The notes under the pieces are model-generated. The model was not told where the DNA came from. It did not search any database and was given only the letters and a program-made list of their open reading frames with translations. Of a stretch of DNA of 64,000 nucleotides, positions 6,338-64,000 are shown piece after piece. Every line of letters starts with the position of its first letter. The stretch's first letter is position 1. Location of the stretch: contig JAZUPQ010000053.1 of assembly GCA_045605265.1 (NCBI GenBank), positions 7,716 to 71,715 of the forward strand, written 5' to 3'. The translations under genes were made by a program, and so were the position numbers. The stretch comes from Eubacteriales bacterium (GTDB lineage Bacteria; Bacillota; Clostridia; Oscillospirales; CAG-272).

Positions 6338-6339
6338 TT

Positions 6340-7332: not shown

Positions 7333-7700
7333 AAATGTTTTTAAAAATACTTCTTGCATTTCTGTTTGGCGGTCTTTTATGCGCCATAACGCAAATAGTT
7401 ATTGACAAAACCGCCCTAACTCCCGCAAAAATATTGGTTTCGGTAGTAGTGGCCGGAGTTGTAATCGGAGCTCTCGGCTGGTTTTCTCCTCTTACGGACA
7501 TTTTCGGCTGTGGTATAACCGTCCCCCTTATAGGATTTGGAGGAAACGTGGCAAAGGGTGTCAAAGAAGCGGTGGACTCCGACGGTCTTTTGGGGGCTAT
7601 AGGAGGCGCATTCAAGAGCGCGGGAGTAGGTCTTGGAGCCTCGCTTTTTTTGGGATTTTTAGTGTCGATTTTCACCAAAGGAACTTCTAAGCGCTTGTAA
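7329..7700 (+). CDS. spoVAE: stage V sporulation protein AE (SpoVAEB-type)
   Basis: 123-aa membrane protein with 'FLFGGLLCAITQ' and 'PLIGFGGNVAKG'. It overlaps the spoVAD stop. The start could instead be the ATG at 7335, which is better spaced from the AAAGGAG RBS. Confidence 0.8.
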   Translation: MKMFLKILLAFLFGGLLCAITQIVIDKTALTPAKILVSVVVAGVVIGALGWFSPLTDIFGCGITVPLIGFGGNVAKGVKEAVDSDGLLGAIGGAFKSAGVGLGASLFLGFLVSIFTKGTSKRL

Positions 7701-7743
7701 ATAAACATTTACATCAAAAAAGTATATTTTTTTGTCTTTTCCC

Positions 7744-37561: not shown

Positions 37562-38521
37562 ATGGCTTGGTGGCAGATTGCTCTGATAGTTTTAGCTTCG
37601 ATTGCGGTTTTGCTTTTTCTCATTTGCTATTTTTCATATGTCTATACGTTCAAACGCAGAAAAAAAGACATCTCTCCCTATCACCAGCTTGACGGCGAGG
37701 ATAAAAACGGCAAGAAAGCGTATTCAAGAAAAATCATAGATGAATTTTTAAAGATAAAACCCACGAAAGAGGTATATATTGATTCCCACGACGGAATTAA
37801 GCTTTACGGAGTTATTTACGAGGTGGATAAAAACGCCCCTTTTGAAATCGCTTTTCACGGTTACAGAAGTCTTGCCGTGAGAGATATGAGCGGGGGAGGC
37901 AAGGAAGTGCTTGACAGAGGCCACAACCTCCTGTTAGTTCATCAAAGAGCTCACGGAAAAAGTGAGGGGAAAACCATATCATTCGGAATTAACGAAAGAT
38001 TTGACGTTAAATCGTGGGCGGAATATATAGCAAGAGAGTACCCAAAGAGCAAAATTCTTTTGGTAGGCATTTCTATGGGAGCTTCCTCCGTAATAATGGC
38101 GGGCGAATTAAGTTTGCCCGAAAACGTGGTCGGAATTTTGGCGGACTCGCCCTACTCATCTCCTGCGGAAATAATAAAAAAAGTATCAAAGGACATAGGA
38201 TGCTTTTTGACGATGCTTTATCCTTTTGTAAAGCTCGGAGCGAAAATTTTCGGAGGCTTCAATTTGGAAGAAGCGTCGCCGAAGACGGCTGTTAAAAACT
38301 ATAAATACCCCTTGTTAATCATACACGGGGAGGGGGATAGCTTCGTTCCTTGCTCTATGAGCAGAGAGATTAAGACTATGAGAGAGGATATTCTTCTCGA
38401 AACGTTTGAGGGGGCAAACCACGGACTTTCTTACATTTGCGACACCGAGAGATACAGAAAAATCACTTGCGATTTTATAGAAAAAATTTTAGGAGAAAAG
38501 GTATATGAAGATAAAGGATAA
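37562..38521 (+). CDS. alpha/beta hydrolase with an N-terminal TM anchor
   Basis: 319 aa with the nucleophile elbow 'GISMGA' and 'IIHGEGDSFVP'. Confidence 0.75.
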   Translation: MAWWQIALIVLASIAVLLFLICYFSYVYTFKRRKKDISPYHQLDGEDKNGKKAYSRKIIDEFLKIKPTKEVYIDSHDGIKLYGVIYEVDKNAPFEIAFHGYRSLAVRDMSGGGKEVLDRGHNLLLVHQRAHGKSEGKTISFGINERFDVKSWAEYIAREYPKSKILLVGISMGASSVIMAGELSLPENVVGILADSPYSSPAEIIKKVSKDIGCFLTMLYPFVKLGAKIFGGFNLEEASPKTAVKNYKYPLLIIHGEGDSFVPCSMSREIKTMREDILLETFEGANHGLSYICDTERYRKITCDFIEKILGEKVYEDKG

Positions 38522-41430: not shown

Positions 41431-43782
41431 TTATTTTATGATTTTGTTGAATAGCTTTTCTAATGGCTTTGACACAAATTGGCTGATTACCGCGAAAACG
41501 GTAGTCGCTCCCAGCATAATGAAGAACAGGCTTTTCTCTTCAAGCGCCGGAAGAAAGCCGAACATATCGGAAAGAACAAAAACAGAGAAAAGCGTTATCG
41601 CTACCGTGAGAAATCCTACGAGTCCCGCTACCATACCTCTCCATTTATTATACGGATGGCACAGGAACAAAAGGTTGATATATCCCGCCCAAATTACCAA
41701 AATCATAGCAATTGAATTTCTTACCGTAGTATCAATGCTCAAAATATTTGATATAATCAAAAGAGTGATAACGGGAACAAACAGCGGCAGAGATTTTGGT
41801 ATACTCTTTGAAAGAACGGTTTTTATGAACGAGCCCTCTATTCTGTTTCTGTTTGGCTCTACCGCCAAAAGCAAGGAGGCGAGTCCGATGATAAGCAATT
41901 CGAGTATTGTGAATTGCGACGGCTCAAAGGGATATCCCGTGAGAGTGAACATTGCGAAAATCGAAAGAGCGATTGTCAAAAACGTCTTCATCAGGAAAAG
42001 CGTTGAGGAGGCTCTTACGTTGTTTATACATCTTCTTCCCTCGTTCACAACGTCTGGAAGGGAGGTAAAGTCGGAATTAGTGAGAACGATATGCGAAACC
42101 TTGCACGCCATCTCGCTGCCCTCAGCCATAGCGATAGCGCAGTTGCTCTCCTTTAATGCAAGGGTGTCGTTTACTCCGTCTCCCGTCATAGCAACGGTGT
42201 GACCGTTCTTTTTGAGCGTTTTCACGAGAAGAACCTTCTGTTCGGGAGAAACTCTTCCGAATACTGCGTAATCCTCTGCGATAGCGGAAAGCTCCTCGTC
42301 TGAGAGATTTTCGCAGGAGATAAATTTATCTGCGTTTTGAATACCAACCTTGGCAGCTATAGAGGAAACGGTTTTGGCGTGGTCACCTGAAATAACTTTT
42401 AAGGTAACACCTTGTTCTGTGAAGGCTCTGATTGTATCAACAGCGCCAACTCTTATTCTGTCGCTAATTGTAATCATGGCAATTGCCACACCCTCTTTTT
42501 CGAGGCTTTCATGCTTCGCAAGAAGCAAAACTCTCTCTCCCAGGGACGCGTGCTCAAATATCAGATTTTCCGTTTCCTGCGACACAGGGCAGGGGGTGAA
42601 GTGGGGCGCACCTATTGAAAATGCTCCCACTCCGGCGATATTCACCGCGCTGTATTTTCTCTTTGACGAGAATGGAATTTTTTCTAAAATTTCAACGTTT
42701 TCGTTTGTGCCAAAGTATTTAACAAGAGCCTCGGAGGTGTTGTTCGTGCCTTTTGCGTTTCCTTCAACCATAGCCATAATCGACTTGATTTCTTCCTCGC
42801 TTACGTCCGAGAGAGGAATGAGGTTTGTGACCTCCATTGTTCCGTCGGTAATCGTTCCCGTTTTGTCAAGGCAGAGAACGTCCGCGCTTGCCAGCATCTC
42901 GATAGAGTACATATCCTGTACGAGAGTGTTTTTCCGTGAGAGTGTAATTACGCTCAAAGAAAGCGTCAGAGTCACGAGCAAGAACATTCCGGCCGGAACC
43001 ATACCGATGACCGATCCGCACATTTTTATGATAGATTCGCTGATGTTTCCGTTGTATTCGGTAAATGAAAAATAGTTGCAGATAAGCGTCGCAATCGCGA
43101 GAGGAATGAGAGCTATGCCGATAACCTTGATGAGTCTGTTGAGGTCGCGGAAAAGATTTGACGACGGCGCCTTAAAGCTCTTTGCAGCGCTCTCGATTTT
43201 GTGCACGTAATTATCTTTCCCCACGGCAGTTACTCTTGCGTAAACGCTTCCGCTGACCAAAAAGCTTCCCGCTAAAAGTTTGTCGCCCTCTTGCTTCTTT
43301 ATCGCATCGGATTCACCCGTGAGCATAGACTCATTGACTTCTGCAAAGCCCGAAATTACTACTGCATCGGAGAGGATTTGCTTTCCGATTTCAAGATACA
43401 TCACGTCTCCGAGCACAATCTCCTCGGCGTTGACGGAGAGGAGCTCACCGTCTCTCAGTACGATTGCCTTCGGCTCGGTTGTAACCGACAGCTTTTCAAC
43501 GGTTCGTTTAGCCTTAATCTCCAAAATCATAGCAATCAGCGTGTTTGGAATCACCACCGCCAAGAAAGTTAGATTTTTATAACTTTGAAGCGAGATAAGC
43601 AGAATACTCACTATCAAATATATCAGATTGAAGTATGTAAAAAGGTTGTCAAATATAATCCTTCCGTAGCTTTTTCCAACCTTTTCGTTAGATATGTTTG
43701 TCTTCCCTTCCGCTTTCAGCCTTTCAACCTCTTGCGCTGTCAAGCCTTCGGGAAGCAGATTTTGGGTTTCTTGATTATCCAT
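41431..43782 (-). CDS. cation-translocating P-type ATPase
   Basis: The phosphorylation motif 'DKTGTIT', 'TGES' and the hinge 'MTGDGVNDTLAL' are present, with about 8-10 TM helices. The ATG at 43782 has a GGAGG RBS; the track start at 43797 includes that RBS. Confidence 0.9.
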   Translation of the reverse strand: MDNQETQNLLPEGLTAQEVERLKAEGKTNISNEKVGKSYGRIIFDNLFTYFNLIYLIVSILLISLQSYKNLTFLAVVIPNTLIAMILEIKAKRTVEKLSVTTEPKAIVLRDGELLSVNAEEIVLGDVMYLEIGKQILSDAVVISGFAEVNESMLTGESDAIKKQEGDKLLAGSFLVSGSVYARVTAVGKDNYVHKIESAAKSFKAPSSNLFRDLNRLIKVIGIALIPLAIATLICNYFSFTEYNGNISESIIKMCGSVIGMVPAGMFLLVTLTLSLSVITLSRKNTLVQDMYSIEMLASADVLCLDKTGTITDGTMEVTNLIPLSDVSEEEIKSIMAMVEGNAKGTNNTSEALVKYFGTNENVEILEKIPFSSKRKYSAVNIAGVGAFSIGAPHFTPCPVSQETENLIFEHASLGERVLLLAKHESLEKEGVAIAMITISDRIRVGAVDTIRAFTEQGVTLKVISGDHAKTVSSIAAKVGIQNADKFISCENLSDEELSAIAEDYAVFGRVSPEQKVLLVKTLKKNGHTVAMTGDGVNDTLALKESNCAIAMAEGSEMACKVSHIVLTNSDFTSLPDVVNEGRRCINNVRASSTLFLMKTFLTIALSIFAMFTLTGYPFEPSQFTILELLIIGLASLLLAVEPNRNRIEGSFIKTVLSKSIPKSLPLFVPVITLLIISNILSIDTTVRNSIAMILVIWAGYINLLFLCHPYNKWRGMVAGLVGFLTVAITLFSVFVLSDMFGFLPALEEKSLFFIMLGATTVFAVISQFVSKPLEKLFNKIIK

Positions 43783-43859
43783 CGCGCGCCTCCGCATTTA
43801 AGTATCTTCTCCATTTTATCAAACAAATGCCCTAATGTCAATTAATTTTTACAAAACTC

Positions 43860-47384: not shown

Positions 47385-47413
47385 TTGACAAATATCTTTC
47401 TGTTTGTTATAAT
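47385..47413 (+). promoter_or_regulatory. sigma-A promoter of tRNA-Thr
   Basis: A consensus TTGACA (47385-47390), a 17-bp spacer, then TATAAT (47408-47413). It lies about 22 nt upstream of the tRNA 5' end. Confidence 0.8.
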
Positions 47414-47435: not shown

Positions 47436-47511
47436 GCTGCTATGGCTCAGTTGGTAGAGCACATCCTTGGTAAGGATGAGGTCCCCGGTCCGAATCCGGG
47501 TAGCAGCTCCA
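47436..47511 (+). tRNA. tRNA-Thr (anticodon GGU), CCA encoded
   Basis: A hand-folded cloverleaf works. The acceptor stem is GCTGCTA/TAGCAGC and the D-arm is GCTC-AGTTGGTA-GAGC. The anticodon arm is CATCC-TTGGTAA-GGATG with anticodon GGT. The variable loop is AGGTC and the T-arm is CCCGG-TCCGAAT-CCGGG. The discriminator is T, followed by CCA. The T-loop reads UCCGAAU, with C at position 55. Confidence 0.88.
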
Positions 47512-47516
47512 GACAA

Positions 47517-47553
47517 CCCCAGGACACGCAAGTGTCTTGGGGCTTTGGTTTTT
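47517..47553 (+). terminator. intrinsic terminator after tRNA-Thr
   Basis: 11-bp stem CCCCAGGACAC/GTGTCTTGGGG (one G-U pair) with a GCAA tetraloop. It is followed by CTTTGGTTTTT. Confidence 0.8.
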
Positions 47554-48656: not shown

Positions 48657-48862
48657 AATATCCTCCATAAAAGTCCTATGTTTTATACAATTATACAACA
48701 ACAGCCGAAGTATGTCAAGCATAAAAAAATCCTAAATATATAAAAAATTTTATTTTGTTAACAACTTATTTATATTTTTGTGCTATAATACTTAACTAGA
48801 TGTGTTTAAAATATTTTTTATACTTCAGGAAGGAACGAAAAAACAAAATTTCGAACAAAAAA

Positions 48863-49840
48863 ATGGTAAAAGCTCAAAATCTTGTAAAAAGATACGGAAA
48901 TAATTATGCTCTCAACGACGTCAGCTTTGAAATCGGCGACGGCGAGATAGTAGGACTTCTCGGTCCTAACGGAGCGGGAAAAAGTACCGCTATGAATATT
49001 CTTACGGGATATCTCTCTGCTACCTCGGGCAGTGCTGAAATCGACGGAGTGAATATGCTGGAAAATCCGATAGAAGCAAAGCGTAACATAGGATTTTTAC
49101 CCGAACAGCCACCGCTTTACCCCGAAATGACGGTAATCGAATATCTCAATTTCGTTTACGAGCTCAAAGGAGTGAGTGAGGACAGGGAAACTCACCTGAA
49201 CAACGTTTTGGAGTCTGTAAGACTTCTTGACGTCAAGGGCAGACTTATCAAAAACCTGTCAAAAGGCTATAAGCAGAGAGTAGGAATCGCGCAGGCGCTT
49301 GTCGGAAATCCTAAGGTTATTATTTTTGACGAGCCTACGGTAGGCCTTGACCCAAAGCAAATCATAGAAGTGAGAAATCTGATACGCTCTCTTGCAAAGG
49401 ATCATACAGTAATTCTCTCAACACATATTTTGGCAGAGGTACAAGCAGTATGCGAGAGGGTTATTATCATAAACAAGGGCAAAATAATAGCAGACGAAAA
49501 GACTGAAGATTTGACAAAAACAATTGAGGACGGCTACCATTACAAAATCAAGGTGTGCGGACCGCAAAAGGAAGTAATCGACGGACTTGAAGCTGTCAGA
49601 GGCGTCAAGAGCGTCACCGCCACAAACGAGAGAGATGCAGATTCCTACGCTTATCTCGTTGAGAGTGAGAGAGGTGTAGACGCCAGAAAACCTATATTCA
49701 ATCTCTGCGCTGAAAAGAAATGGGCGATACTTGGAATGATGCCCGTTGGCACAGACCTTGAATCAATATTTATCAGACTTGTTGACGGCTCGGAAAACGT
49801 TAACGCCTCAACACAGAAAAATCGCAGAAAAGCGCATTGA
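48863..49840 (+). CDS. ABC transporter ATP-binding protein (ABC-2/GldA-like)
   Basis: Walker A 'GPNGAGKST', signature 'LSKGYKQR' and Walker B 'IIFDEPTVGLD' are present. The start at 'MVKAQNLVKRYG' is typical for this family; the track start at 48800 adds a K-rich extension. Confidence 0.9.
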   Translation: MVKAQNLVKRYGNNYALNDVSFEIGDGEIVGLLGPNGAGKSTAMNILTGYLSATSGSAEIDGVNMLENPIEAKRNIGFLPEQPPLYPEMTVIEYLNFVYELKGVSEDRETHLNNVLESVRLLDVKGRLIKNLSKGYKQRVGIAQALVGNPKVIIFDEPTVGLDPKQIIEVRNLIRSLAKDHTVILSTHILAEVQAVCERVIIINKGKIIADEKTEDLTKTIEDGYHYKIKVCGPQKEVIDGLEAVRGVKSVTATNERDADSYAYLVESERGVDARKPIFNLCAEKKWAILGMMPVGTDLESIFIRLVDGSENVNASTQKNRRKAH

Positions 49841-49854
49841 TAGGGGGATAAAAA

Positions 49855-50562
49855 ATGTTTGCAGTATTTAAAAAGGAATTACGCACGTATTTCACGGGTG
49901 TTATGGGATATGTATTTCTCGTGCTTTATCTTGCCCTGGGCGGCGCGATTTTTGCGTTTACAACACTGTTTTCCATGTCATCTTCCGTAACGGAGTTTTA
50001 TACATATATGCTTTTGGCATCAGGTATAATTCTCCCGCTTCTTACAATGAAATCGTTCAGTGAAGAGAGAAAAATTAAAACCGAGCAGCTTCTTCTTACA
50101 GCGCCCGTATCTATAATTTCTCTCGTGGCAGGCAAGTTCTTGGCTGCTTATTCCATGTTTGCGTCTTGTATGATATTGAATTCGCTTTATTTTCTCGTTT
50201 TGAATATATACGCTCAACTTAAATTCGCGGTGCTTTTTGGAAATTTACTGGCAATTTTGCTTGTTGGTATGGTGTTTATTTCCATAGGTCTTTTTGTATC
50301 CTCGCTTACCGAAAATCAGCTTGCCGCGGCAATCGGCACAATCGGTATTATAATAGTATTTTTGCTTATCGGACTTTTGTCGGCGCTGTTTCCAACGGCG
50401 TACGCTATCCGTTATATTCTTAACTTCATTTCAATCTTCACACGTTTCCAAGGATTCGTTAACGGATACTTTGATTTTGCTTCGGTATTTTACTATCTGA
50501 CAGTGTCATTCATATTCTTGTACTTGACAGTGAGAGTTTTTGACCGTCGCAGATATAATTAA
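49855..50562 (+). CDS. ABC-2 type transporter permease (GldF-like)
   Basis: 235 aa with 6 hydrophobic helices. It begins 14 nt after the ATPase gene. Confidence 0.8.
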   Translation: MFAVFKKELRTYFTGVMGYVFLVLYLALGGAIFAFTTLFSMSSSVTEFYTYMLLASGIILPLLTMKSFSEERKIKTEQLLLTAPVSIISLVAGKFLAAYSMFASCMILNSLYFLVLNIYAQLKFAVLFGNLLAILLVGMVFISIGLFVSSLTENQLAAAIGTIGIIIVFLLIGLLSALFPTAYAIRYILNFISIFTRFQGFVNGYFDFASVFYYLTVSFIFLYLTVRVFDRRRYN

Positions 50563-50573
50563 AGGGGCTAAGA

Positions 50574-52088
50574 ATGGAAAAAAATAAGGAAATACGCAAG
50601 GCGCAAATAGCCCAAAAGGTTTTACCGGAAGGACTTTTTGCCGTGATAATTGCTATTGCGCTGGCGGTAAACGTAATACTTTATATAGTGACGGAAGCAT
50701 TCGGACTTTATCTGTATCAACCAACGGTTGATGACCTTACACTATCCGGAAATACCGACGTTATGTTCAAAGAAGCGTTGGATAACGAAAGTAAGGTTAA
50801 AATCATCTTCTGTCAGGATGAAAAGGATATGTCTGTTCACGATACGGGAAGTTTTGTTTACAGAACTGCGGTTGAATTCGAGAACAAATACCCTGAAATG
50901 ATAGAAATTGAATATGTCAATATTCTGACCAAAAGAAACCAAAATGGCGATATAGTCGACCTTTCGCAATATCGTAAAAATAAAGAAGAAATATTTTATT
51001 CATCGGTTATATTTGAGTGTGAGGGCAGATATAAGGTGCTGACCGACCTGCTTACCTCTGTCGGATATTCCGACTTTTTCACCCTCAACACAAGGGGACA
51101 GGCAACCGCTTACAATGGAGAAGAAATTATAGCGAGTATGATTTCTTGGGTATTGACCAAAGAACATAAAACTGCGTACGTGGTAGGCGGTCACAGCGAA
51201 AAATTAGACGCATCCTTTACAAATCTTCTCGTTTGCTCGGGATATGACGTAAAGCCTCTTGATTTGAAAAGGGAAAACGTTCCCGACGATGCCAATCTCG
51301 TGATTATTTCAAACCCTGCGTCGGATTTTGAAAAGGCGGCAGAAGGCTCAAACCTTTGGAGTGAAATCCTTTGGAGTGAAATCGACAGGCTTGAGGATTT
51401 TGTGAACAAAAGAAACGGCCACCTGATCGTGACACTCGACCCTTATGCAAAGAGACTGCCCGTTCTTGAAGCGTTTTTGAGTACATACGGTATATCCGTT
51501 TCATATACCCAAAGCGAAAAGGACGGATATATACACAATATTGTAAAGGATATGCAAAACGCGATTACAAGCGACGGCTTTACTCTTGTTACGAGCTACG
51601 CCGACGACCCCGTGGCTAATAAAATCGACGACATCGTATCCAAATATTCAACAGGCGACGTAATCATAAAATCCACGGGCGCATTGGATCTTTCCGGCGA
51701 GGCAAAACCGATTTTGCTGACCTCTTCCGCGTCTTCATTGGAAGCGGGCGGAAAAACCGTTGATACGGAGGGAAGATACTGCGTAGGCGCATACAGCAAA
51801 TCCGAAAACAGAGGAACTGTATTCGTGGTTCCGAGCGCGTATATAGCCGCATCGGACTCTCTTATAACCGAGGGATATTCGAACAAAGAAATGCTTTTCG
51901 CTTTAAGCGAAACGCTCTTCGGCGCGAAAAATCTGCCATACGGTTGTAAAATCGTAGGTTACGACACTCAAACTCTTGAAAATTTGACTATGGGCGCCGC
52001 TACCGTTTACACAGTTTTATTTATGAGTATTCCTTTTGCAATCGCAGTGGTCGGAACGGTCATAATTATACGCAGAAAAAATAGGTAA
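50574..52088 (+). CDS. GldG-like ABC-transporter auxiliary protein, paralog 1
   Basis: 504 aa with TM helices at both the N- and C-termini. The layout matches GldG/ABC_transp_aux: 'DDLTLSGNT..VKIIFC', 'AYVVGGHSEKLD' and 'DDANLVIISNPASDF..GHLIVTLDP'. Confidence 0.7.
   Translation: MEKNKEIRKAQIAQKVLPEGLFAVIIAIALAVNVILYIVTEAFGLYLYQPTVDDLTLSGNTDVMFKEALDNESKVKIIFCQDEKDMSVHDTGSFVYRTAVEFENKYPEMIEIEYVNILTKRNQNGDIVDLSQYRKNKEEIFYSSVIFECEGRYKVLTDLLTSVGYSDFFTLNTRGQATAYNGEEIIASMISWVLTKEHKTAYVVGGHSEKLDASFTNLLVCSGYDVKPLDLKRENVPDDANLVIISNPASDFEKAAEGSNLWSEILWSEIDRLEDFVNKRNGHLIVTLDPYAKRLPVLEAFLSTYGISVSYTQSEKDGYIHNIVKDMQNAITSDGFTLVTSYADDPVANKIDDIVSKYSTGDVIIKSTGALDLSGEAKPILLTSSASSLEAGGKTVDTEGRYCVGAYSKSENRGTVFVVPSAYIAASDSLITEGYSNKEMLFALSETLFGAKNLPYGCKIVGYDTQTLENLTMGAATVYTVLFMSIPFAIAVVGTVIIIRRKNR
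51353..51382 (+). repeat. perfect 2 x 15-bp in-frame tandem duplication inside the GldG-like gene
   Basis: CCTTTGGAGTGAAAT repeated twice gives the protein sequence 'LWSEI LWSEI'. Confidence 0.9.
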
Positions 52089-52106
52089 GGAGAGAGACGG
52101 GACTAA

Positions 52107-53840
52107 ATGAAAAATATTTTTAGTAAGACGAACAAAAAAAGAAATAAAATAATGTCCGCTTTGACCGTTGCGCTTATCGTTTTGACGGTAGTCTTAAATC
52201 TGCTTTTTACTTATTATGGACAGAAGCACACGATATTCGCAGATGAAACCCCGGAGGGACTTTATACTCCTACGGATAAATTTATAGAGGAATGTAAATT
52301 TCTTAATGATGTCAAGGATGAAAACGGAGAAAAGGCCACTGTTAAGATCATTTTCTGTAACGACCGCGACTACATCGAAGAGAATATGGTTAGCAGAGTG
52401 ACGTATTTTGTTGCCAAGAGATTGGCCTCGGTTTATGACAATCTTGAAATCGAAAACGTAAATGTAATTCTTAATCCTACGGCGGTCGCAAAGTACAAAA
52501 CGACCTCACTTTCCGAAATACTTCCAAGCGATATTATCGTTGCTTACGGAGACAGATACAGGATAATGGGCGCAAGTAAGATGTGGGTTACGGGCAGTGA
52601 CAAAACACTGTTTTCATATAATGGCGAATACAGGCTTTTGGGACTTCTCAAATCCGTAACCGCGTTGGGTATGCCAAACGCGTACTTCGTTATCAACAAC
52701 GGTGAGACTCACTACGACCCCGACCGCAAGGAGACGGGTTATATAGACGCTGACGGCAATTTCGTTAAGGTTACGGATGAGAAATATCTCCTTGACGGAT
52801 TTGCAAATCTTCTCGCTGCTCGCGGATTGACGATTAAGCTGCTTGATTTGAGCAAGGCAGACAGAATTCCGGATGATTGCGCGCTTTTGATTATAAATAA
52901 TCCAAAGAGAGATTTCACTTACGACGAGGACAGGCTTGACGAATTTTACTATGTAAGCGACACGGAAAAATTAGACCGCTACCTTGTTGAAAAACAAGGT
53001 GCGATTATGGTAAATAAGGACTATAAAACCACCTTACCCGTATTTGAGGATTTTCTTCACGAATGGGGATTTGATTTCTCAAACGCTATCGTAAAAGATG
53101 AGGTAGACAGCATCAAGGATGAGCAAAATACCAACACCCAGCTGATATCTAAATACAATAGCGACGAAACGAGCTACGGATACGCAATATACGGTGATTT
53201 TGCCGCCTTGGGCAGCGCTCCGATAACGGTGTTTACCAATGCGGGAGCGATAAAATGCGCCTTTCCTACGTCTGCCTCCCAGCAGGAGCAGGGTACGCCA
53301 AACGCTTCAAAAAACTTTGTTTCGTTCCTGACGTCTTCCGCAAATGCTCAGCTTTACAGCAAAAACGATTTGAGCAACGATTATACTGCGCCTATGGATG
53401 ACACGGGCTCTTATAATCTCGCAGCCCTCTCGATAAGAAACGAGATTGACACGGAAAAGGACGAGAAAACCTACTCTTATTTCTTCTGCACGGCAAGCGA
53501 CGAGTTTTTCTCGAATTTGCTATTGAACAACCCTGTGTATGCAAATTATGACGTTCTTTCCTCGCTTATAGATAACATTTCAAGAATTGATATGTTTGGC
53601 TCGATGGAAATCGGCGGAACATCGTTTAACTCCTCCTCTTTCGGCGGAAAGCAGCTGGTATCTTCCGCGATGAATGAAGTGGATAAGAATATCTTTTCAC
53701 CCGACGGTAAAGAAATTGTCAGAGTAACCAAGGGAATAAATACCGCGGATAAGGTTATTCTTACGGTAATCATATTCGCCGTACCGACGGCAATCGCAGT
53801 CTTAGGCGTGGTTGTAAGAATAAAGAGAAAATTCTTGTAA
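52107..53840 (+). CDS. GldG-like ABC-transporter auxiliary protein, paralog 2
   Basis: 577 aa with TM helices at both termini. It has the same motif order as paralog 1: 'ATVKIIFCND', 'AYFVINNGETHYD' and 'DDCALLIINNPKRDF..GAIMVNKD'. Confidence 0.65.
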   Translation: MKNIFSKTNKKRNKIMSALTVALIVLTVVLNLLFTYYGQKHTIFADETPEGLYTPTDKFIEECKFLNDVKDENGEKATVKIIFCNDRDYIEENMVSRVTYFVAKRLASVYDNLEIENVNVILNPTAVAKYKTTSLSEILPSDIIVAYGDRYRIMGASKMWVTGSDKTLFSYNGEYRLLGLLKSVTALGMPNAYFVINNGETHYDPDRKETGYIDADGNFVKVTDEKYLLDGFANLLAARGLTIKLLDLSKADRIPDDCALLIINNPKRDFTYDEDRLDEFYYVSDTEKLDRYLVEKQGAIMVNKDYKTTLPVFEDFLHEWGFDFSNAIVKDEVDSIKDEQNTNTQLISKYNSDETSYGYAIYGDFAALGSAPITVFTNAGAIKCAFPTSASQQEQGTPNASKNFVSFLTSSANAQLYSKNDLSNDYTAPMDDTGSYNLAALSIRNEIDTEKDEKTYSYFFCTASDEFFSNLLLNNPVYANYDVLSSLIDNISRIDMFGSMEIGGTSFNSSSFGGKQLVSSAMNEVDKNIFSPDGKEIVRVTKGINTADKVILTVIIFAVPTAIAVLGVVVRIKRKFL

Positions 53841-53850
53841 GGAGACGCGA

Positions 53851-56772
53851 ATGAAATATATAAAGAAAAAGGTTAATCAATTTCACCTTGCAATAATTTT
53901 GAGCTGTATCTTTGCTCTTTTGGTCGGAACCGGTGTCGTTTTGGGTCTTACTTTGTTTAAAGATGAACCCAATACTCCCGCACAGAAGCCTGAGGTTTTA
54001 GAAGGAGAGAGCGTTCACTACAATTCAACCGTTGCATATCCGGTAATCGAAGAAACGGATATGCAGAGCATAACTGTTGAGAACACGGTTAAGGGCGAGG
54101 GAAACAACCCCGACCAAAAAAATTATTTTAAATTTGAACGTCCAAAACCCGGCGAAGCTATGTCTATTTATTATTCGTTAAATCACGGCGATGCCGATGA
54201 AAAAATTGAGTATATAGAATATCTTCCGGAAATATTTGATAAAGAAAATATTGATTATTCAAGCCTTTACGCCATAGAGTTAAATGACGGATATAAAGGA
54301 ATTTATAAATTGTCTTATTTGAGCAACGCCCTCGAAGTTGCATATTTTAGAGAGAGAATAGTGCTCTCAAATGACGCGGAAAAGAGAGAAAAGGAGCTTC
54401 ATGCCTACGGACTTGCAGAGGGTGAATATGCAAAAGTAACATTCGAGTATCTTGAATACAAAGATGAGAACGACAAGGTCGGAACTCTGAAAACTCACAC
54501 CATAAAAATCGGTGAGCAAAACATAAGCGGCAACGGCTACTACTTTATGGTAGACGACAGGAACTACGTATATACTTCAACGAGCAACCACTACGATTAC
54601 GCTCTTGCGGGCTTTGAGAGCTTTGTTAAATCAAACCTCGTCATCGAAGGGCTTGAAATCGATAACGGCTACGGTCCGTTCCTCACCACCAACTTCACAC
54701 AATGGGTGAACCAAATGCACGAAAATATCGGTGACAAGGTGGTTGACGGATCGAAGGTTATCGTATATAGCGACGTTATCACTCCTATAAATCTTCCGGA
54801 TGAAAGCTACGGTGCAACGGGCGTGATAGGAGACGGATATCTTCCGTCCGAATACAGTCAAATTGAGTTGGACCTTTCCGAAATGACGGGAGACTCCTAC
54901 GAAAGGCTTCACCGTATGCTCGTTGGCAAGAAAATAGGCTCTTACGAGCAAGCGCCGTTACTTATTACACTACCAACGAGAACAGGCGTGTTCAATATAG
55001 TTGAGTTTGACAAAAACGGCAAAGCGGACTACGTTTATGAGATTTGCAAAATCGAGTCAATTTTGACAAATGACGGCGAATTATGCGACACGGGTAGGGT
55101 AGTAGGTGAAAATAACCTTATAAAAGTGACCTATAACCTCAAAATCAACGGTAAAAAGATTGGCAGCAAATATCACGGCGTAATAGATATCAGCGAGGAT
55201 TTTGTAAATAGCGCTGAAAGCCAAATCAGAGCGAGCGCCATCGGCGAGCTGACGACTCCTATTTCCATTGAAGTTAATTACAGTAAAAACAACTCGGTAA
55301 ATATCCAAGGTAAAAAGGTTATGACCGAGATTGTATCCATTCTCTCTCCCGACGGCAAGGATCCGTTGAGAAGAGTTACCAAAAACTGTGTTGTGGCGTA
55401 TAAGTACAAAGTAATTGTAGACGGCGTCGTAACAGAAGAAAATAAGGTAGGCAATATTGACTTTTCAAAGGTTGACTTTACCGATGACAGCAAGAATCTT
55501 TCCGAAAAAGCCCTGTTTGCTATGATTGAAGGAAAAACAAGAGGAAAATTTAAAGACGATAAAATGGTTTTCGAAACCCAAACTTATTATTTCCAATTCG
55601 TCTACGAATTTCTTGCTTACAGCATCAAAAGTATAGACTACTTTGTTACCAAAGAAATGGTTGTTTCATTCCGTTTCCAAAACTATTCCGAGAGGGATCC
55701 GTATTACGGCGGTTCTTTGTACGAAAATTTGATTGATGACGAGAGAAAGCTATACGGACTCAACGCCTCCGCTTGCGAAAATATAGTTCAAATGCTCGGC
55801 GGAGTATCGGGAGATTCGGAGTCAAATACTGCCAACGGACTCGCCGGCACAGAGACGGTCGCCGTGGGAATAACTCCGGAAATTATGTATGATAAGGGCC
55901 TTTACGCACATACAATTTACTTTGAATTGCCCAGACTTATAACTATCAAAGACGGCTCTACGGATGAAAATCAGGTTGATGACTACGATTATTACGGCAA
56001 AATCGGTTTCAATCTTTATATAAGTCCCGAACAACCCGATAATACGAGATTTATAGCCTCCGACCTTTATGACGTGGTTGCAAAGATTGACGGAGAAAAC
56101 TTCAAGTTTTTGGACTACGAATTCACGGATTTCTGGGCTCGCCGCGATATGTTTATGATGAATATCAAGGTGATTGACGAGGTTGATGTAAAACTGGATA
56201 TGTCCGATGTTTACGGGCTTTATAGTTTTGAAATCAGACACAATGTCGAAAACAATTTTGACAAAGTGGAAGTCAAGGTCACCCCCGATCCGAGCGTTGA
56301 ATGCAGTGACAGCGAGCTTTTGGATTATATGAATGGCAAGAATGCAACTCAGGTAGATTTGGGTAATTTCTACAACTCAATTTATGAGGGAGATCCTATC
56401 GCGGACGACTTTAAGCCTGACACAATCGGCGCAGGTCTCTTCAAAGAGTGGATCAGAATGATATACTATACCGGTTATACAGGCGCTCTTAGCGAATCGG
56501 AGAAGCAAGAACTTGAAGTAAGCACCTCAAAGGCTCTCCTCACACTCTCTTTTAAGGCTAGCTCAAACGCAAACAAATACGTCTATGAGTTTTACAGAAT
56601 AAGCGACCGTAAGATAGCTGTAAAGCTATATCAGTTAAGTCCAAGCAACGTGAAAACGGACACGGTATCGGACTTTTATATTTCAACGTTTGCCTTCCAA
56701 AAGATTGTAAGAAATTTCCTCGGAATTTTAAACGGAGAAATCATTAACACCGACACGGGATACGAAGATTAA
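53851..56772 (+). CDS. large membrane-anchored extracytoplasmic protein in the slot after GldG (DUF4340-like position)
   Basis: 973 aa with a single N-terminal TM helix, 'HLAIILSCIFALLVGTGVVLGLTLF'. The rest is hydrophilic and rich in Tyr, Asp, Glu and Asn. It begins 10 nt after the preceding gene and has a GGAG RBS. The family assignment is by position only. Confidence 0.5.
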   Translation: MKYIKKKVNQFHLAIILSCIFALLVGTGVVLGLTLFKDEPNTPAQKPEVLEGESVHYNSTVAYPVIEETDMQSITVENTVKGEGNNPDQKNYFKFERPKPGEAMSIYYSLNHGDADEKIEYIEYLPEIFDKENIDYSSLYAIELNDGYKGIYKLSYLSNALEVAYFRERIVLSNDAEKREKELHAYGLAEGEYAKVTFEYLEYKDENDKVGTLKTHTIKIGEQNISGNGYYFMVDDRNYVYTSTSNHYDYALAGFESFVKSNLVIEGLEIDNGYGPFLTTNFTQWVNQMHENIGDKVVDGSKVIVYSDVITPINLPDESYGATGVIGDGYLPSEYSQIELDLSEMTGDSYERLHRMLVGKKIGSYEQAPLLITLPTRTGVFNIVEFDKNGKADYVYEICKIESILTNDGELCDTGRVVGENNLIKVTYNLKINGKKIGSKYHGVIDISEDFVNSAESQIRASAIGELTTPISIEVNYSKNNSVNIQGKKVMTEIVSILSPDGKDPLRRVTKNCVVAYKYKVIVDGVVTEENKVGNIDFSKVDFTDDSKNLSEKALFAMIEGKTRGKFKDDKMVFETQTYYFQFVYEFLAYSIKSIDYFVTKEMVVSFRFQNYSERDPYYGGSLYENLIDDERKLYGLNASACENIVQMLGGVSGDSESNTANGLAGTETVAVGITPEIMYDKGLYAHTIYFELPRLITIKDGSTDENQVDDYDYYGKIGFNLYISPEQPDNTRFIASDLYDVVAKIDGENFKFLDYEFTDFWARRDMFMMNIKVIDEVDVKLDMSDVYGLYSFEIRHNVENNFDKVEVKVTPDPSVECSDSELLDYMNGKNATQVDLGNFYNSIYEGDPIADDFKPDTIGAGLFKEWIRMIYYTGYTGALSESEKQELEVSTSKALLTLSFKASSNANKYVYEFYRISDRKIAVKLYQLSPSNVKTDTVSDFYISTFAFQKIVRNFLGILNGEIINTDTGYED

Positions 56773-56834
56773 ACTTGATTTTTTTGTATTTTAGCAGAGA
56801 AAAATATATTTTTTGAAAAAAATGGAAAAAACAT

Positions 56835-56863
56835 TTGCATTTTACAAAATAATATGTTATAAT
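56835..56863 (+). promoter_or_regulatory. sigma-A promoter of the 664-aa lipoprotein gene
   Basis: TTGCAT (56835-56840), a 17-bp spacer, then TGtTATAAT (-10 at 56858-56863). Confidence 0.65.
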
Positions 56864-56939
56864 AGTTTCTGCTTATTATAAGCGCCCGTGAAAATGGGTT
56901 AAACAGTTATTAAAAAAATAGATATATGAGGAAGAAAAA

Positions 56940-58934
56940 ATGAAAAAAATCATCTCTATGATTATGGTGGCGGTAATGCTTATCCTCTCGCTTGTGAGCT
57001 GCGCATACAGCATTGCGGACGAGGATATATCGGCGTATGCTACCATATCCGCAGAAAACAAAAAGCTTCTGGAAGCTGCATTGAAGGATTTGGCTATTGA
57101 GGACGGAGACTTCACAGCAGATGCAGAGATTAGAAACCAGAAGGTTGAGGACGCTCTTTACGCTTCGATTGCAAACAGCGTAGCCTCCGAGGAAAAAAAG
57201 ACAGAGGGTAAGGCGAGCGGACATGACCTCGTGTTCTATTCCTACTATTGTACTGCAAAGATTGACGAAAAAGACGTTGTGCTTTTTGCTTCAAATATGA
57301 AGTCGGGCTCAGAGGGAAAGTTCCAGCTCGGTATTTTGGACTCGACCAAAACTCTTGAAATCGAACTTGGCAAGCTTTTCTCTGATTTTGATTTCAAAAA
57401 CAATTCTTACAAAACCGAGAGCCCTACCGCAACAACGCTTAAAGAGGGCGACGTTGTATTTGTAAGCTACAAGTATAAGGAAAAGGTCAAGAACGACGAA
57501 GGTAAGGAAGTTGAAAAGGACGTTACGATTACAAACGAGATGATCGTAGTCGAAAAGGTGTCCGATGACGGAGTCGAGAATCTTGCTCAATACCTTAACG
57601 GTCAAGAGGGCAACAAAGTTGATACACCCAAAAACGGCGTTCAGGGCGTAGACTATACCAATATCAAGGTCGACTGGATTGCTACGGGCAAAGAGCTTGG
57701 CACCGTTAAAGACGTTACCTTTGACGAAGAAAAGAAGGTAAAGGATATCAGAGGCGCTGAATATAACCTTGAAGACGTTGAGCTTACCTACCACGTATAT
57801 CCCGTAGGATACATTGGAGTTGAGGACTACAACGGCAGAAACGTAATTGACGTAATTCTCGGCGCGCAAATCACACCCAACATCTTCTATGAAATTTTGT
57901 TCGGCGAGAAGTTCTTTGACAAGAGCGAGACCGAAAGAAATAAGATTCTTGATAAGTATACAACAAGAGATGCGGACGGCAAGAAGATGAAGCTCGGTAC
58001 TCTTATCGAGTCAATCGCTGCCGCTCATAACGATCTTGACAGCAAGGAAAAGACTCTTAAAACAGCAAAAGAAACTCTTGAAAAGAGCAAAGAGACACTC
58101 GAAACTGCTCAAAAGAATTACGATGAAGCAGCCGAGAGCGATAAGAATACCAAGCTTGAAGCTCTTAACAAGGCAAAAGAAAGCGTAAAAAAGGCAGAAG
58201 ACGCAGTTTCTACAGCGGAAAACAATCTCAAACAGTCCGAGAGAGATAAGGATGAAAAAATCAGATTGCTCTTGACTCTTGAAAACGGCAAAATGGAAAA
58301 TAAGGTTGCGGAAAGCTACAAGGAAAACGTGAGAAGCAATCTCATTGATTCGTATAACAACGAAATCAAGATGAACCTTGCAAACGAGATTTACTTCTTC
58401 TTTGAAAAATACGTTGACGTTAAGTCGTATCCCGAAAAGGCTATTGACACAACCTACGACCAGCTTATCCAAAACTATAAGTACGATTTCTACAAGGGCG
58501 ATTTCGACAGCAGTACCTCCAACTACAAGAAGTACGAGGGCAACTTCAAGAATTTCCTTATGGTAGAGGTTAAAGAGCTTAACGGCGGCAAGGATGTAAC
58601 CAATTACGATACTGCTCTTGCTCTTATCCGCAAGGATGCGGAAAACTACGTTAAGCCGGTTCTTGTGATGTATGCGATTGCAGAGGCGTTTAATTTAACC
58701 GTTACCGAAAAAGAATACGATAAGTATATGGATTCAGACAATTACGATGCTAACGTATATCAATACGGTGAAAACGCAGTTCGCTATGCTTATCAGTTTG
58801 ACAAGATAATGAACTACTTCCTTCAAGACGGCGTAACGGCCGCTGTAAACGGTGAAGGAAAGGTTAATTATAACGGTCACATTACGTATAAATTCGCTAC
58901 TCCCGCATCCGAAGAAGCAGAGGACGAAGAATAA
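56940..58934 (+). CDS. lipoprotein with trigger-factor-like architecture and a K/E-rich coiled coil
   Basis: 664 aa with a lipobox 'LSLVSC'. A segment '[13 protein letters not shown]' sits where the trigger-factor PPIase begins. A long coiled coil follows ('[31 protein letters not shown]..'). C-terminal segments ('[16 protein letters not shown]', '[27 protein letters not shown]') resemble the trigger-factor C-domain. Confidence 0.5.
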
Positions 58935-58999: not shown

Positions 59000-59437
59000 A
59001 TGAAGAAGGTTGAATTGTATACCGACGGCGCTTGCCGTGGCAATCCCGGTAAGGGTGGCTGGGGAGCGATATTGGTATACGGTAAATACGAAAAAGAACT
59101 TTCAGGCGGAGAGAGAGAGACAACCAACAACCGTATGGAGTTGATTGCCGCAATCGAGGGCCTTTCCGCTCTAAAAGAGCCTTGCGAGGTTACACTTTAT
59201 TCGGATTCCAAATATCTGGTGGATGCATATTTGCAGGATTGGGTAAGCGCTTGGCGCGAAAAAGGCTGGAAAAGAGGTAAGGATGAGCTTAAAAATCCGG
59301 ACCTTTGGGAAAAGCTCTACGCATTGACAGAGACTCACAAGGTGAGCTTCGTGTGGGTGAAGGGGCATAACGGTCACGACTATAACGAGAGATGCGACAA
59401 GCTTGCGACCGAGTTTGCGGATTCGTTTGCAGATTAG
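59000..59437 (+). CDS. rnhA: ribonuclease HI
   Basis: '[22 protein letters not shown]', 'TNNRMEL', 'YSDSKY' and '[17 protein letters not shown]' carry the RNase H DEDD residues. The ATG at 59000 matches RNase HI N-termini; the track start at 58949 adds 17 residues. Confidence 0.9.
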
Positions 59438-60996: not shown

Positions 60997-61030
60997 AAAA
61001 CGCTGTACCAAATTTGGTACAGCGTTTTCT
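60997..61030 (+). terminator. intrinsic terminator after the TF-like gene
   Basis: 9-bp stem CGCTGTACC/GGTACAGCG followed by TTTT. Confidence 0.85.
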
Positions 61031-62398: not shown

Positions 62399-62449
62399 TT
62401 TAATACGATAGGATACACACAAATATATTTTAAATTAAGGAGAAAAAAC

Positions 62450-64000
62450 ATGAAAAAGAAACTGATTTGTCTGTTTTTGACGGTTGCTATGTTGCTTTCT
62501 TGTATGTTTGTTTTTGCTTCTTGTGATTTTGGCGGCGGAGGAAACGACGACGACCAAAATAACAACGATGACGACGACAAAAACAACAATAACGACGACA
62601 ATAACGACGACAATAACGACGACGATGACGGCAATCTCGATTTCGGCGGCGGCGACGGCGACGGCGACGGAGAAGAGAGCGGCTACGGCGATTGGGATAC
62701 AACAACCCTTTTGTTCCAGCTTACTCACAACACTAACTCCGAAGAGCTTCCTGCCGGTTGTGAGAGATACATGGCCGGATCGGACGAGTTCGACGATACC
62801 ATCGACGATATGGTTATGGAGCGTAACAATGCCGCATACTATGAAGCTAACGTAGAAGTTAACTATCAATACTATGATACTTCTGCTACATACTCCATGG
62901 CGGGCACCTCTCTTGCGGACGATATCTTTAGAAAGACTCACTCCGATACGGTAAGAGGCAACCCGGATATGTACGTTAACTTCCAGGCTACAATGGTAAG
63001 CTGCGCGCTTAACGGATGCTTTGCTAATATCGCTTCCGAGACAAAGGGAACTAACTACTTCAAGTTCAACGACGAAGACTATAATCCCGACTACACTCTT
63101 GAAGATGAGGAAGATATCAAGGACTATGGTTTTATGTACGACTATATGAGAAACTGCACACTTTCCAAGGATAAGATGTACATTCTCGCGTCTGACTATA
63201 TGACAGACCTTGTAAGAGCGTTCTACGTAGTACCTGTTAACGTTCAGCTTCTCAACATGGTTGGAAACGATGTTACAGGCGATAAGAACAATGACGGTGA
63301 GTTTACAATCGATGACCTTTACCAAGAGGTATGGGACAAGAATTGGGACTATGACCTTATGGCTGCTTACGCAGACGAAATTTACGAGCCGAGCCCTCTT
63401 TCCGGCGGCGGTCAGACAATTCACGACAGAGTGGGTTGGGCGCTTAATGCCGGCGGTCTTGTAGCTTCCGGTCTTGTATTTACAACACCTATCACTATCA
63501 TTAACAGAGATCTTAATGCAGCAGGCGACGATTACGAATATAGCTATCCGGAAGAGTGCCAAGGCCTTTATGACCTCGCTGATTCTCTTGCAAAGCTTGT
63601 TAAGAAGGAGGGTATCATCGTAGTTGGCGGCCAACAGGGCGCTCAACACCAGGCTGACTATCAGACTTACCACACATCCGCATTCCACGCAATTCGCGAG
63701 AGATTCTGCGATAATGGAGTTCTCTTTGGCGGCGTTATCCTTCTCGGCGCTCTTGAATTCGATCAGTACCAAGACCTTAAAGACGGCGGCGGATTCGGTG
63801 TAGTTCCTGTTCCTTTCTACAAGAAGGCTACTGCAAACGATAAGTATCTTACAAGTATCCACAACGTTGGACGCTGCGGCGCTATCGCTATCAATACACA
63901 GAACTTCTCACAATGCACAGCATTCCTTGATTATCAATCACAGAACTCAACAGAAATTCTTAACGAGTATTACGACTACCAGCTTCAATACAAGGTTGCA
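62450..64000 (+). CDS. lipoprotein, probable extracellular solute-binding protein (3' end beyond the window)
   Basis: I translated this by hand from the ATG at 62450 (RBS AAGGAG at 62437-62442). It gives 517 codons with no stop up to base 64000. The N-terminus is 'MKKKLICLFLTVAMLLSCMFVFASC' (lipobox), followed by an Asp/Asn/Gly linker and then a globular region ('..TIDDMVMERNNAAYYEANVEVNY..'). That region resembles large Clostridial ABC substrate-binding lipoproteins. The gene is absent from the ORF track because it has no stop in the window. Confidence 0.75.
   Translation, partial: MKKKLICLFLTVAMLLSCMFVFASCDFGGGGNDDDQNNNDDDDKNNNNDDNNDDNNDDDDGNLDFGGGDGDGDGEESGYGDWDTTTLLFQLTHNTNSEELPAGCERYMAGSDEFDDTIDDMVMERNNAAYYEANVEVNYQYYDTSATYSMAGTSLADDIFRKTHSDTVRGNPDMYVNFQATMVSCALNGCFANIASETKGTNYFKFNDEDYNPDYTLEDEEDIKDYGFMYDYMRNCTLSKDKMYILASDYMTDLVRAFYVVPVNVQLLNMVGNDVTGDKNNDGEFTIDDLYQEVWDKNWDYDLMAAYADEIYEPSPLSGGGQTIHDRVGWALNAGGLVASGLVFTTPITIINRDLNAAGDDYEYSYPEECQGLYDLADSLAKLVKKEGIIVVGGQQGAQHQADYQTYHTSAFHAIRERFCDNGVLFGGVILLGALEFDQYQDLKDGGGFGVVPVPFYKKATANDKYLTSIHNVGRCGAIAINTQNFSQCTAFLDYQSQNSTEILNEYYDYQLQYKVA
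62588..62623 (+). repeat. 3 x 12-bp tandem repeat (AATAACGACGAC) within the Asp/Asn linker
   Basis: There are three perfect copies encoding NNDD. A further (GGCGAC)x3 lies at 62651-62668. Confidence 0.85.

Follow-up and report, generated by a model that had tools for sequence, protein, structure and literature searches.

What does a transporter related to the gliding-motility proteins GldA, GldF and GldG do in a monoderm member of the Clostridia? Cassettes that combine an ABC-2 type ATP-binding cassette (ABC) transporter with GldG-like and DUF4340 proteins are widespread, and to our knowledge no substrate has been assigned to them in the time since the 1997 description of gldA. Here, we examine one such cassette in a stretch of 64,000 nucleotides (nt) from contig JAZUPQ010000053.1 (positions 7,716 to 71,715 of the forward strand), which belongs to the Eubacteriales bacterium assembly GCA_045605265.1. 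We refer to this whole stretch as the window. The cassette encodes an ATPase, a permease, two GldG-like proteins (G1 and G2) and a DUF4340-family protein of 973 amino acids (aa). We find that these five genes form a conserved block with three further genes, two of which encode trigger-factor (TF) homologues predicted to be tethered at the outer face of the membrane. That the region encodes a GldA/GldF/GldG-type ABC system, both in identity and in architecture, we regard as highly probable. The best overall explanation, to which we assign a probability of about 0.55, is a double-GldG ABC system that acts, together with foldases, on envelope (lipo)proteins or amphipathic components.

Conservation of an eight-gene block

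Scanning one genome per GTDB species with a profile returned 108 carriers, of which 80 were retained; the counts of loci for the block and its neighbours are over these 80 loci plus locus L001. All 80 retained carriers are metagenome-assembled genomes (MAGs) of uncultured Clostridia, Eubacteriales or Oscillospiraceae; those whose records state a host come from the gut of a ruminant or other animal. At each of the 68 loci with enough upstream sequence, the five genes of the cassette are all present and in order. The five open reading frames (ORFs) are therefore real genes, and the possibility that they are chance ORFs can be rejected. A downstream trio, consisting of the genes for a lipoprotein (lip664), ribonuclease HI (RNase HI) and a transmembrane (TM)-anchored trigger-factor homologue (TF511), is present at 66 of the 66 loci with enough downstream sequence. 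All eight genes occur in the same order at every fully covered locus (57/57), and L083 and L086, the most divergent members examined, still have the block. A sequence-only reading of this DNA had described a cluster of five genes followed by TF-like genes. Its gene order is kept in every covered relative and the TF-like genes are indeed constant companions, but the conserved unit comprises eight genes, not five.

Synteny is lost on either side of this unit. A divergent TrpRS gene adjoins the block in 54 loci; beyond TrpRS, IleRS is found in only 7 of 81 loci, and beyond TF511 the downstream genes of the window recur in none of the 81. Median identity to the window proteins is 84% for TrpRS, 76% for RNase HI, 72% for the ATPase and 66% for the permease, as compared to 43% for both G1 and G2, 34% for the 973-aa protein, 31% for TF511 and 30% for lip664. 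By this measure the extracytoplasmic parts evolve fastest, and the rapid divergence of the 973-aa protein (34% versus 72% for the ATPase) is as expected for a surface-exposed part. It is well supported that the block is a housekeeping, vertically inherited unit in a family-level clade of uncultured spore-forming gut Clostridia.

A second type of locus provides an independent view of the same system. In another Eubacteriales MAG, locus L082 (GCA_045661285.1, JAZRFI010000068.1, 3678-11541) carries a divergent double-GldG cassette in a different context, beside MarR and another ABC exporter. Its ATPase and permease are 56% and 60% identical to those of the window, and its G1 and G2 are 33% and 34% identical to their counterparts, whereas cross pairs of G1 with G2 share 24-27%. 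Each of the two L082 GldG proteins is thus closest to its own counterpart, so the G1/G2 duplication is ancient and predates the split between the two locus types. The L082 DUF4340 protein is shorter, at 639 aa, and aligns to residues 589-971 of the 973-aa protein. Directly after its gene lies a TM-anchored TF511-like gene (probability 97.2%, E = 3.6e-11). That a TF-like gene recurs in this independent setting is our strongest indication that foldases and transporter belong together. Tandem GldG-like genes of a third lineage are found on a short metagenome contig, L085, and a metagenome scan with G2 of the L082 type yielded a single locus of 3.7 kb.

The ATPase and the permease

In the translated ATPase, all the expected motifs are intact: Walker A (GPNGAGKST), the signature (LSKGYKQR), Walker B (IIFDEP) and the H-loop (STH). 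Its best NCBIfam model is GldA (TIGR03522), which aligns over the full length with 316.4 bits, under the cut-off of 402.6. The closest solved relatives are the nucleotide-binding domains (NBDs) of ABCA1, ABCA4 and ABCA3 (E values of 1e-60 to 1e-62), followed by NosF and LptB (1e-39). The ABCA3 alignment reaches residue 313 of the ATPase and includes the regulatory extension.

The permease shows about six hydrophobic segments in a hydropathy profile and scores above threshold against two Pfam families, ABC2_membrane_3 (PF12698; 34.1 bits versus 31.6) and ABC2_membrane_2 (PF12679; 31.9 bits versus 27.2). As with the ATPase, a Gld model is the best in NCBIfam: GldF (TIGR03518) aligns over the full length with 101.5 bits, under its cut-off of 288.5. 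A homology search gave 6124 relatives at E ≤ 1e-5, the matches listed being close relatives only, with at least 71% identity. No solved structure was found by sequence or profile searches of PDB sequences. Judged from its sequence, the pair of an ABC2_membrane permease with about six TM segments and an NBD with all motifs probably belongs to the ABC-2 type (type V) transporters.

The pair of GldG-like proteins

Hydropathy places TM helices at residues 21-39 and 481-499 of G1 and at residues 15-33 and 550-568 of G2, in agreement with the sequence-only reading, which had proposed anchors at both ends of both proteins. G1 and G2 align with each other in BLASTP (E = 2e-17, 24% identity), and the motif order that had been noticed in both, VKIIFC / G(H/N)(S/G)E / DD..L(V/L)II(S/N)NP..DF, is seen in this pairwise alignment. 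When their profiles are compared with hhalign, the relationship extends over 457 columns with a probability of 100% and E = 7e-68.

Assignment of these proteins to a family depends on which members are considered. Window G1 has no Pfam match, ABC_transp_aux (PF09822) included, and window G2 reaches 33.0 bits against ABC_transp_aux (E = 4.9e-8), just under the gathering score of 34.7. Among the orthologues, however, 40 of 41 for G1 and 36 of 39 for G2 match this family at E ≤ 0.01, and precomputed PF09822 matches exist on about 20 relatives of G1. The NCBIfam model for GldG itself (TIGR03521) matched neither G1 nor G2 at E ≤ 0.01, nor any of the 39 G2 orthologues.

Structure comparison points in the same direction. 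The AlphaFold2 (AF2) model of G1, with a predicted local distance difference test (pLDDT) score of 86.9, has as its top Foldseek matches OST48/Wbp1 (6c26_B, E = 1.3e-10; 6s7t_G) and the GIFT domain of IFT52 (5fmr, E = 5e-10), while class I glutamine-amidotransferase folds rank after them. With a probability of 1.00, E values of 1e-10 to 1e-8 and target TM-scores of 0.45-0.74 at 14-16% identity, these matches place the G1 ectodomain in the GIFT fold. At the level of profiles against PDB sequences, nothing significant was found for G1, IFT52 appearing at E = 0.86. For G2, a GIFT fold is suggested by its full-length alignment with the G1 family. A relationship between GldG and IFT52, named GIFT, was reportedly published by Beatson and Ponting in 2004, and the G1 structure match agrees with it.

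Overall, G1 and G2 are clearly homologous to the ABC_transp_aux family. The GldG affinity proposed earlier thus stands on the orthologues, the G1/G2 alignment and the G1 structure match, even though the window copies themselves fall below the Pfam cut-off. Since the orthologues match ABC_transp_aux and the GldG equivalog model does not pick up G1, G2 or the G2 orthologues, the two proteins belong to the GldG family broadly defined and are not Bacteroidetes GldG. More generally, the scores show that the cassette proteins are not equivalogs of Bacteroidetes GldA, GldF and GldG. The fixed pairing of G1 with G2 implies an asymmetric accessory module.

The giant DUF4340 protein

Hydropathy bears out the single N-terminal anchor that had been ascribed to the 973-aa protein. 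DUF4340 (PF14238) matches it above the Pfam cut-off (35 versus 25 bits) in one segment only, with residues 176-264 aligned to positions 32-108 of the 183 in the model, and this match is seen in 30 of 32 orthologues. An N-terminal anchor and a place directly downstream of a gldG-like gene are further features that it has in common with the DUF4340 family. For the remainder of the chain, from about residue 330 to 973 (some 650 residues), no Pfam family was found at E ≤ 5 in searches with three segments and with consensus sequences.

The AF2 model of this protein is beta-rich, with very long strands (pLDDT 85.3; predicted TM-score, pTM, 0.79). A whole-chain Foldseek search of the PDB gave nothing at E < 0.001, the best match (E = 0.02, probability 0.06) being meaningless, and a profile search of PDB sequences likewise gave nothing significant. 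Within the chain, residues ~354-450 and ~456-540 form a tandem repeat (hhalign probability 95.7). The family is small, amounting to 53 clusters among 5.8 billion proteins, and its profile finds 590 of 1.84 billion representatives at E ≤ 1e-3. Because basic residues flank the cytoplasmic sides of the TM helices, as described by the positive-inside rule, the large domains of G1, G2 and the 973-aa protein should face outward.

Two tethered trigger-factor homologues

In TF511, a TM helix at residues 28-46, following a basic N-terminus, takes the place of the ribosome-binding domain, according to hydropathy. The protein scores 25.6 bits against FKBP_C (threshold 21.1) and 63.8 bits against the tig model TIGR00115, whose cut-off is 180. 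Trigger_C is recognized in 31 of its 42 orthologues and FKBP_C in 21, and the only PDB matches of its profile are trigger factors (1t11 at E = 4.6e-10, also 1w26 and 1hxv). TF511 is thus a trigger-factor homologue rather than an equivalog, and its FKBP-like and Trigger_C-like domains are predicted to lie outside the membrane.

The lipoprotein lip664 has a signal peptide and a lipobox, L-V-S-C21, in which C21 is invariant in 42 orthologues. Its profile aligns with that of the TF511 family over 399 columns (probability 99.85%, E = 1.4e-30), and its relation to trigger factor runs through this profile only. The two proteins are paralogues of each other. Between their genes lies that for RNase HI, identified by Pfam RNase_H (153 bits) and by the NCBIfam model for ribonuclease HI (210 bits, over a cut-off of 160), and this position is kept in 73 loci. 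As a cytoplasmic nuclease, RNase HI stands apart in a gene block that is otherwise extracytoplasmic.

Gene layout and signals

The five cassette genes lie on the same strand and are separated by exactly 14, 11, 18 and 10 nt (Table 1). Coordinates, ORFs and hydropathy agree with the earlier description of a tightly packed cluster that encodes an ABC ATPase, an ABC-2 permease, two GldG-like proteins and an N-terminally anchored 973-aa protein. Shine-Dalgarno-like purine runs precede genes 2-5 (GGGGGA, AGGGG, AGGAGAG and AGGAGA, respectively). The ATPase gene has none within 15 nt of its start at 48863, which follows an A-rich leader; GGAAGGA is found 29 nt upstream. A ribosome-binding site for each gene, as had been claimed, is therefore present for four of the five. 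An alternative ATPase start lies at 48800, and that at 48863 is supported by the L001 orthologue, which is also called at 325 aa.

Table 1. Positions of the genes and signals of the block within the window.
Feature	Coordinates	Strand	Basis and remarks
Extended -10 promoter-like element, TGcTATAAT	48781..48789	+	Upstream of ATPase gene; consensus match only, direct reading
ABC ATPase, 325 aa; GldA-like/ABCA-like nucleotide-binding subunit with C-terminal extension	48863..49840	+	Pfam ABC_tran, 114 bits
ABC-2 type permease, 235 aa; ~6 TM, GldF-like	49855..50562	+	Pfam and hydropathy
G1, GldG-like, 504 aa; predicted extracytoplasmic GIFT domain and beta-rich domain	50574..52088	+	Orthologues, AF2 model
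G2, GldG-like, 577 aa; ancient paralogue of G1	52107..53840	+	ABC_transp_aux (sub-threshold), orthologues, profile alignment
Giant DUF4340-family protein, 973 aa; single N-terminal TM anchor, rest predicted extracytoplasmic	53851..56772	+	Pfam, hydropathy, AF2
Internal promoter-like site, TTTGCA-18-TATAAT with upstream TG	56834..56863	+	In 167-nt gap; consensus scan and direct reading
Lipoprotein lip664, 664 aa; TF-like paralogue, coiled-coil insertion ~312-455	56940..58934	+	Signal peptide, profile alignment
RNase HI	59000..59437	+	ORF from GTG 58949; likely start ATG 59000, preceded by AAAGGGA
TF511, TM-anchored trigger-factor homologue, 511 aa	59453..60988	+	FKBP_C, tig, profile versus PDB
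Perfect 14-bp hairpin with A and T run flanks	60997..61028		Likely bidirectional intrinsic terminator

No terminator-like hairpin is seen between the 973-aa gene and the lipoprotein gene (56772-56940). The hairpin that follows TF511 is likely to close the block. An Rfam search of the region returned only a tRNA, with no riboswitch or leader.

Comparison with known systems

The GldA/GldF/GldG system of Flavobacterium johnsoniae is built from the same three parts. Its ATPase has a nearly identical signature (LSKGYRQR there, LSKGYKQR here), its ABC-2 permease has 6 TM helices, and its accessory protein carries a large external domain between two terminal TM helices. In contrast to that system, the clade described here scores under the GldA and GldF cut-offs (see above), lacks a match to the GldG model, has two GldG paralogues instead of one, and has a giant DUF4340 protein and TF-like foldases attached. 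The host also differs, being a monoderm member of the Clostridia with no gliding or type IX secretion system (T9SS) genes in view.

The widespread cassettes of ABC-2, ABC_transp_aux and DUF4340 genes, for example those in SAR11, Verrucomicrobium and Caldicellulosiruptor, contain the same gene families in the same order. The PF09822 protein Athe_2368 was detected in the extracellular proteome of the Gram-positive Caldicellulosiruptor (PMC5865380), so GldG-family proteins of Gram-positive bacteria are already on record. Relative to these widespread cassettes, three features set the present one apart: there are two GldG copies, kept as a conserved G1/G2 pair; at about 970 aa, the DUF4340 protein is enlarged, belongs to a restricted family and contains ~650 residues without a family match; and the block is fixed beside two extracytoplasmic TF-like genes.

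Among better-characterized transporters, the eukaryotic lipid exporters ABCA1, ABCA3 and ABCA4 are the nearest solved relatives of the ATPase, and in them, too, very large extracellular domains accompany a transmembrane part of ABC-2/type V architecture. In ABCA, though, everything is carried on a single polypeptide and the ectodomains are loops of the transporter, whereas here they are separate GIFT and DUF4340 proteins, and no sequence relation was found between the permease and a solved structure. NosDFY, LptB2FG and LolCDE/MacB couple the use of ATP in the cytoplasm to work on a partner in the periplasm or on a cargo extracted from the membrane, and we propose the same mode of action below. 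These systems differ in their accessory folds (GIFT and DUF4340 here), and no partner of the NosD, NosL, LptC or LolA type was found. A Nos-type copper system was considered and rejected, as neither NosD nor NosL is present. The best structural matches of the G1 ectodomain, OST48/Wbp1 and IFT52, are scaffold subunits of unrelated eukaryotic complexes, and no function can be transferred from the match.

Like Tig, TF511 and lip664 contain FKBP-like and Trigger_C-like regions; unlike Tig, they lack the ribosome-binding N-domain, and TF511 scores under the equivalog cut-off. In their predicted tethering at the outer membrane face they resemble PrsA, a lipoprotein, and PpiD, which is TM-anchored, but they are of the FKBP type rather than parvulins, and lip664 carries a coiled-coil insertion of ~140 aa. 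The literature searched contains no description of FKBP-type extracytoplasmic TF-like foldases of this sort, no study of what GldG-like or DUF4340 proteins do in Firmicutes, and no study of a system with a G1/G2 pair, a giant DUF4340 protein and trigger-factor homologues. Together with the PDB searches, this agrees with the earlier view that the cluster is not a well-characterized transporter: no characterized transporter or solved structure corresponds to it.

What is new here is therefore the combination. Cassettes of GldAFG, ABC_transp_aux and DUF4340 genes are already known, and the present system is homologous to them; the conserved G1/G2 pair, the ~970-aa DUF4340 protein of which two-thirds is unassigned, and the fixed association with two extracytoplasmic trigger-factor homologues are not found together elsewhere in that literature.

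Function and rival explanations

How might these parts work together? What follows on function we infer from the parts list, topology, homologies and conservation described above. The sequence-only reading had conjectured an envelope-spanning export or scaffold machine from the doubled GldG and the very large fifth protein. The ATPase and the permease would form the usual (NBD)2(TMD)2 core, where TMD denotes the transmembrane domain, and a putative G1/G2 heterodimer would replace the homodimeric GldG of single-copy systems. This heterodimer could provide an asymmetric platform on the outer face, onto which one copy of the giant DUF4340 protein is predicted to dock. Powered by ATP hydrolysis, the system may then extract, release or hand over an envelope component that is embedded in the membrane or anchored to it at the outer leaflet, and the two anchored TF-like foldases might hold or fold its protein part.

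A more specific mechanism, in which the system serves the maturation or stabilization of envelope (lipo)proteins and not the efflux of small molecules, can be put forward tentatively, by analogy with F. johnsoniae. In that organism, GldF and GldG are necessary for GldA to localize to the membrane, and GldA, GldF and the peptidyl-prolyl isomerase (PPIase) lipoprotein GldI are each needed for the stability of the lipoproteins GldJ and GldK (review, PMC9127263). The literature searched gives no substrate for GldAFG. In SAR11, the DUF4340 protein OG1814 is predicted by AF-multimer to be a subunit of the neighbouring ABC transporter (preprint, bioRxiv 10.64898/2025.12.11.693642), and a DUF4340 gene with an essential domain has been reported in Verrucomicrobium (V. 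spinosum; PMC12283558). Taking these reports on GldI, GldJ and GldK and on DUF4340 proteins together with the TF-like linkage seen here, we favour an ATP-driven assembly that would act on membrane-anchored envelope (lipo)proteins or amphipathic components at the outer face.

It is also conceivable, although unlikely in our view, that all eight genes encode one machine which couples cytoplasmic ATP hydrolysis to extracytoplasmic chaperone work. An ABCA-like ABC-2 motor would then drive the asymmetric GIFT platform of GldG1 and GldG2 and a wall-spanning DUF4340 giant, and this assembly, with the two tethered trigger-factor homologues, would fold, release or place envelope (lipo)proteins.

Several points weigh against joining the double-GldG system to the foldases, or against a protein cargo. 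All relatives found are MAGs, and the literature searched names no cargo even for the founding GldAFG system. TrpRS is also kept beside the block in 54 loci, so synteny within one clade is weak evidence of coupling. The TF-like match at L082 covers only 141 columns, in a gene that is cut by the contig end. RNase HI stands in the block without an obvious link to the envelope. Given the internal promoter-like site at 56834-56863, the TF-like genes may have a transcript of their own. Finally, the similarity of the ATPase to ABCA lipid exporters would favour a lipid or amphipath as cargo over a protein.

This last point leads to the rival that survives best, the export of a lipid or lipid-linked polymer, which we consider possible but doubtful. 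Here, the cargo would be an amphipathic envelope molecule (for example a glycolipid, an anchor of the lipoteichoic-acid type or a lipid-linked glycan), extracted or flipped by an ABCA-like ABC-2 core. Together with the two GldG-like proteins, the beta-rich DUF4340 giant would provide a conduit through the wall, and the TF-like genes would be mere conserved neighbours. The ABCA similarity of the ATPase, which includes the regulatory extension, and the ABC-2 type of the permease are in line with such a role, as is the long, beta-rich model of the 973-aa protein. The GIFT domain occurs also in OST48, a subunit of the complex that transfers lipid-linked oligosaccharides, and the internal promoter-like site parts the TF-like genes from the cassette. 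Yet NBD similarity does not define a substrate; no glycosyltransferase, flippase or polymer-synthesis gene is found in the block or conserved beside it; the whole-chain Foldseek search of the PDB gave no lipid-binding fold for the 973-aa protein; and a TF-like gene recurs beside the divergent L082 system.

A pump that confers immunity to antimicrobial peptides or drugs, of the ABC-2 class represented by DrrAB, LanFEG and BcrAB and with the large proteins as accessory shields, is very unlikely. DrrA (208 bits) and a lantibiotic-protection ATPase (186 bits) are the next-best NCBIfam models for the ATPase after GldA, but these scores are far under the respective cut-offs of 312 and 310 bits. Moreover, no sensor kinase, regulator or biosynthetic gene is found nearby, known immunity pumps are without GldG and DUF4340 partners, and the block lies at the same housekeeping locus beside TrpRS in every relative examined, unlike accessory resistance cassettes. 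A search with PADLOC, in which the ATPase showed only generic ABC/AAA similarity and the other six proteins no match, also led us to reject a defence system.

An envelope machine specific to sporulation, acting in the intermembrane space between forespore and mother cell or in the assembly of cortex or coat, is highly improbable. The genome does carry SpoVAD, and large membrane-anchored extracytoplasmic parts are found in some sporulation channel proteins as well; but the single promoter-like element upstream of the cassette is an extended -10 of the vegetative, sigma-A type, the block has no sporulation gene as a conserved neighbour, and no component matches a sporulation family. A surface-motility apparatus analogous to that of gliding Bacteroidetes, which the best-scoring models of the ATPase and permease (GldA and GldF) might bring to mind, is hardly credible: none of the three Gld equivalog cut-offs is reached, neither the window nor 86 related loci show a further gld, spr or T9SS gene, and gliding based on a T9SS needs an outer membrane, whereas the host belongs to the Clostridia. 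The earlier exclusion of Bacteroidetes-type gliding is thereby upheld.

Why should a double-GldG system with attached foldases be of wider interest? The locus offers three handles on the problem posed by these cassettes: a fixed G1/G2 pair, an expanded and fast-evolving DUF4340 partner, and a recurrent link to tethered, TF-like FKBP proteins, which echoes the common phenotype of GldA, GldF and GldI in Flavobacterium. Together, these suggest extracytoplasmic protein maturation as a testable hypothesis for the whole family. If the eight genes do encode one machine, it would be an ATP-powered system for extracytoplasmic protein maturation in monoderm bacteria. It would account for the common phenotype of GldAFG and the PPIase lipoprotein GldI in Flavobacterium, and the GldG/DUF4340 family would gain its first function. 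The value of the locus is limited by the fact that every carrier found is an uncultured MAG and that its cargo is not identified from the sequence.

Other features of the window

The genes gyrB, gyrA and parB put the window near the replication origin. A SpoVAD gene at 6328-7332 (348 bits) speaks for a spore-forming Firmicute as host, in line with the sequence-only reading. This gene, within 5885-7708, is the sole direct evidence of spore formation in the window, and the small ORFs that flank it probably complete a spoVA operon.

On the minus strand, at 62435-63862, a 475-aa ORF is without a Pfam or NCBIfam match at the thresholds used and is not conserved beside the block in any related locus. 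Two other genes have no relation to the cassette: one at 38505-41390 encodes a 961-aa peptidase of the M16C/PreP type (M16C_assoc, PreP_C), and next to it, on the opposite strand, one at 41431-43797 encodes a P-type ATPase. Between the IleRS and TrpRS genes lies a tRNA-Thr(GGT) gene (47436-47511). It is preceded by a perfect promoter-like site at 47385-47413 (TTGACA-17-TATAAT, with a TG upstream), and a GC-rich terminator hairpin comes after it (47517-47542).

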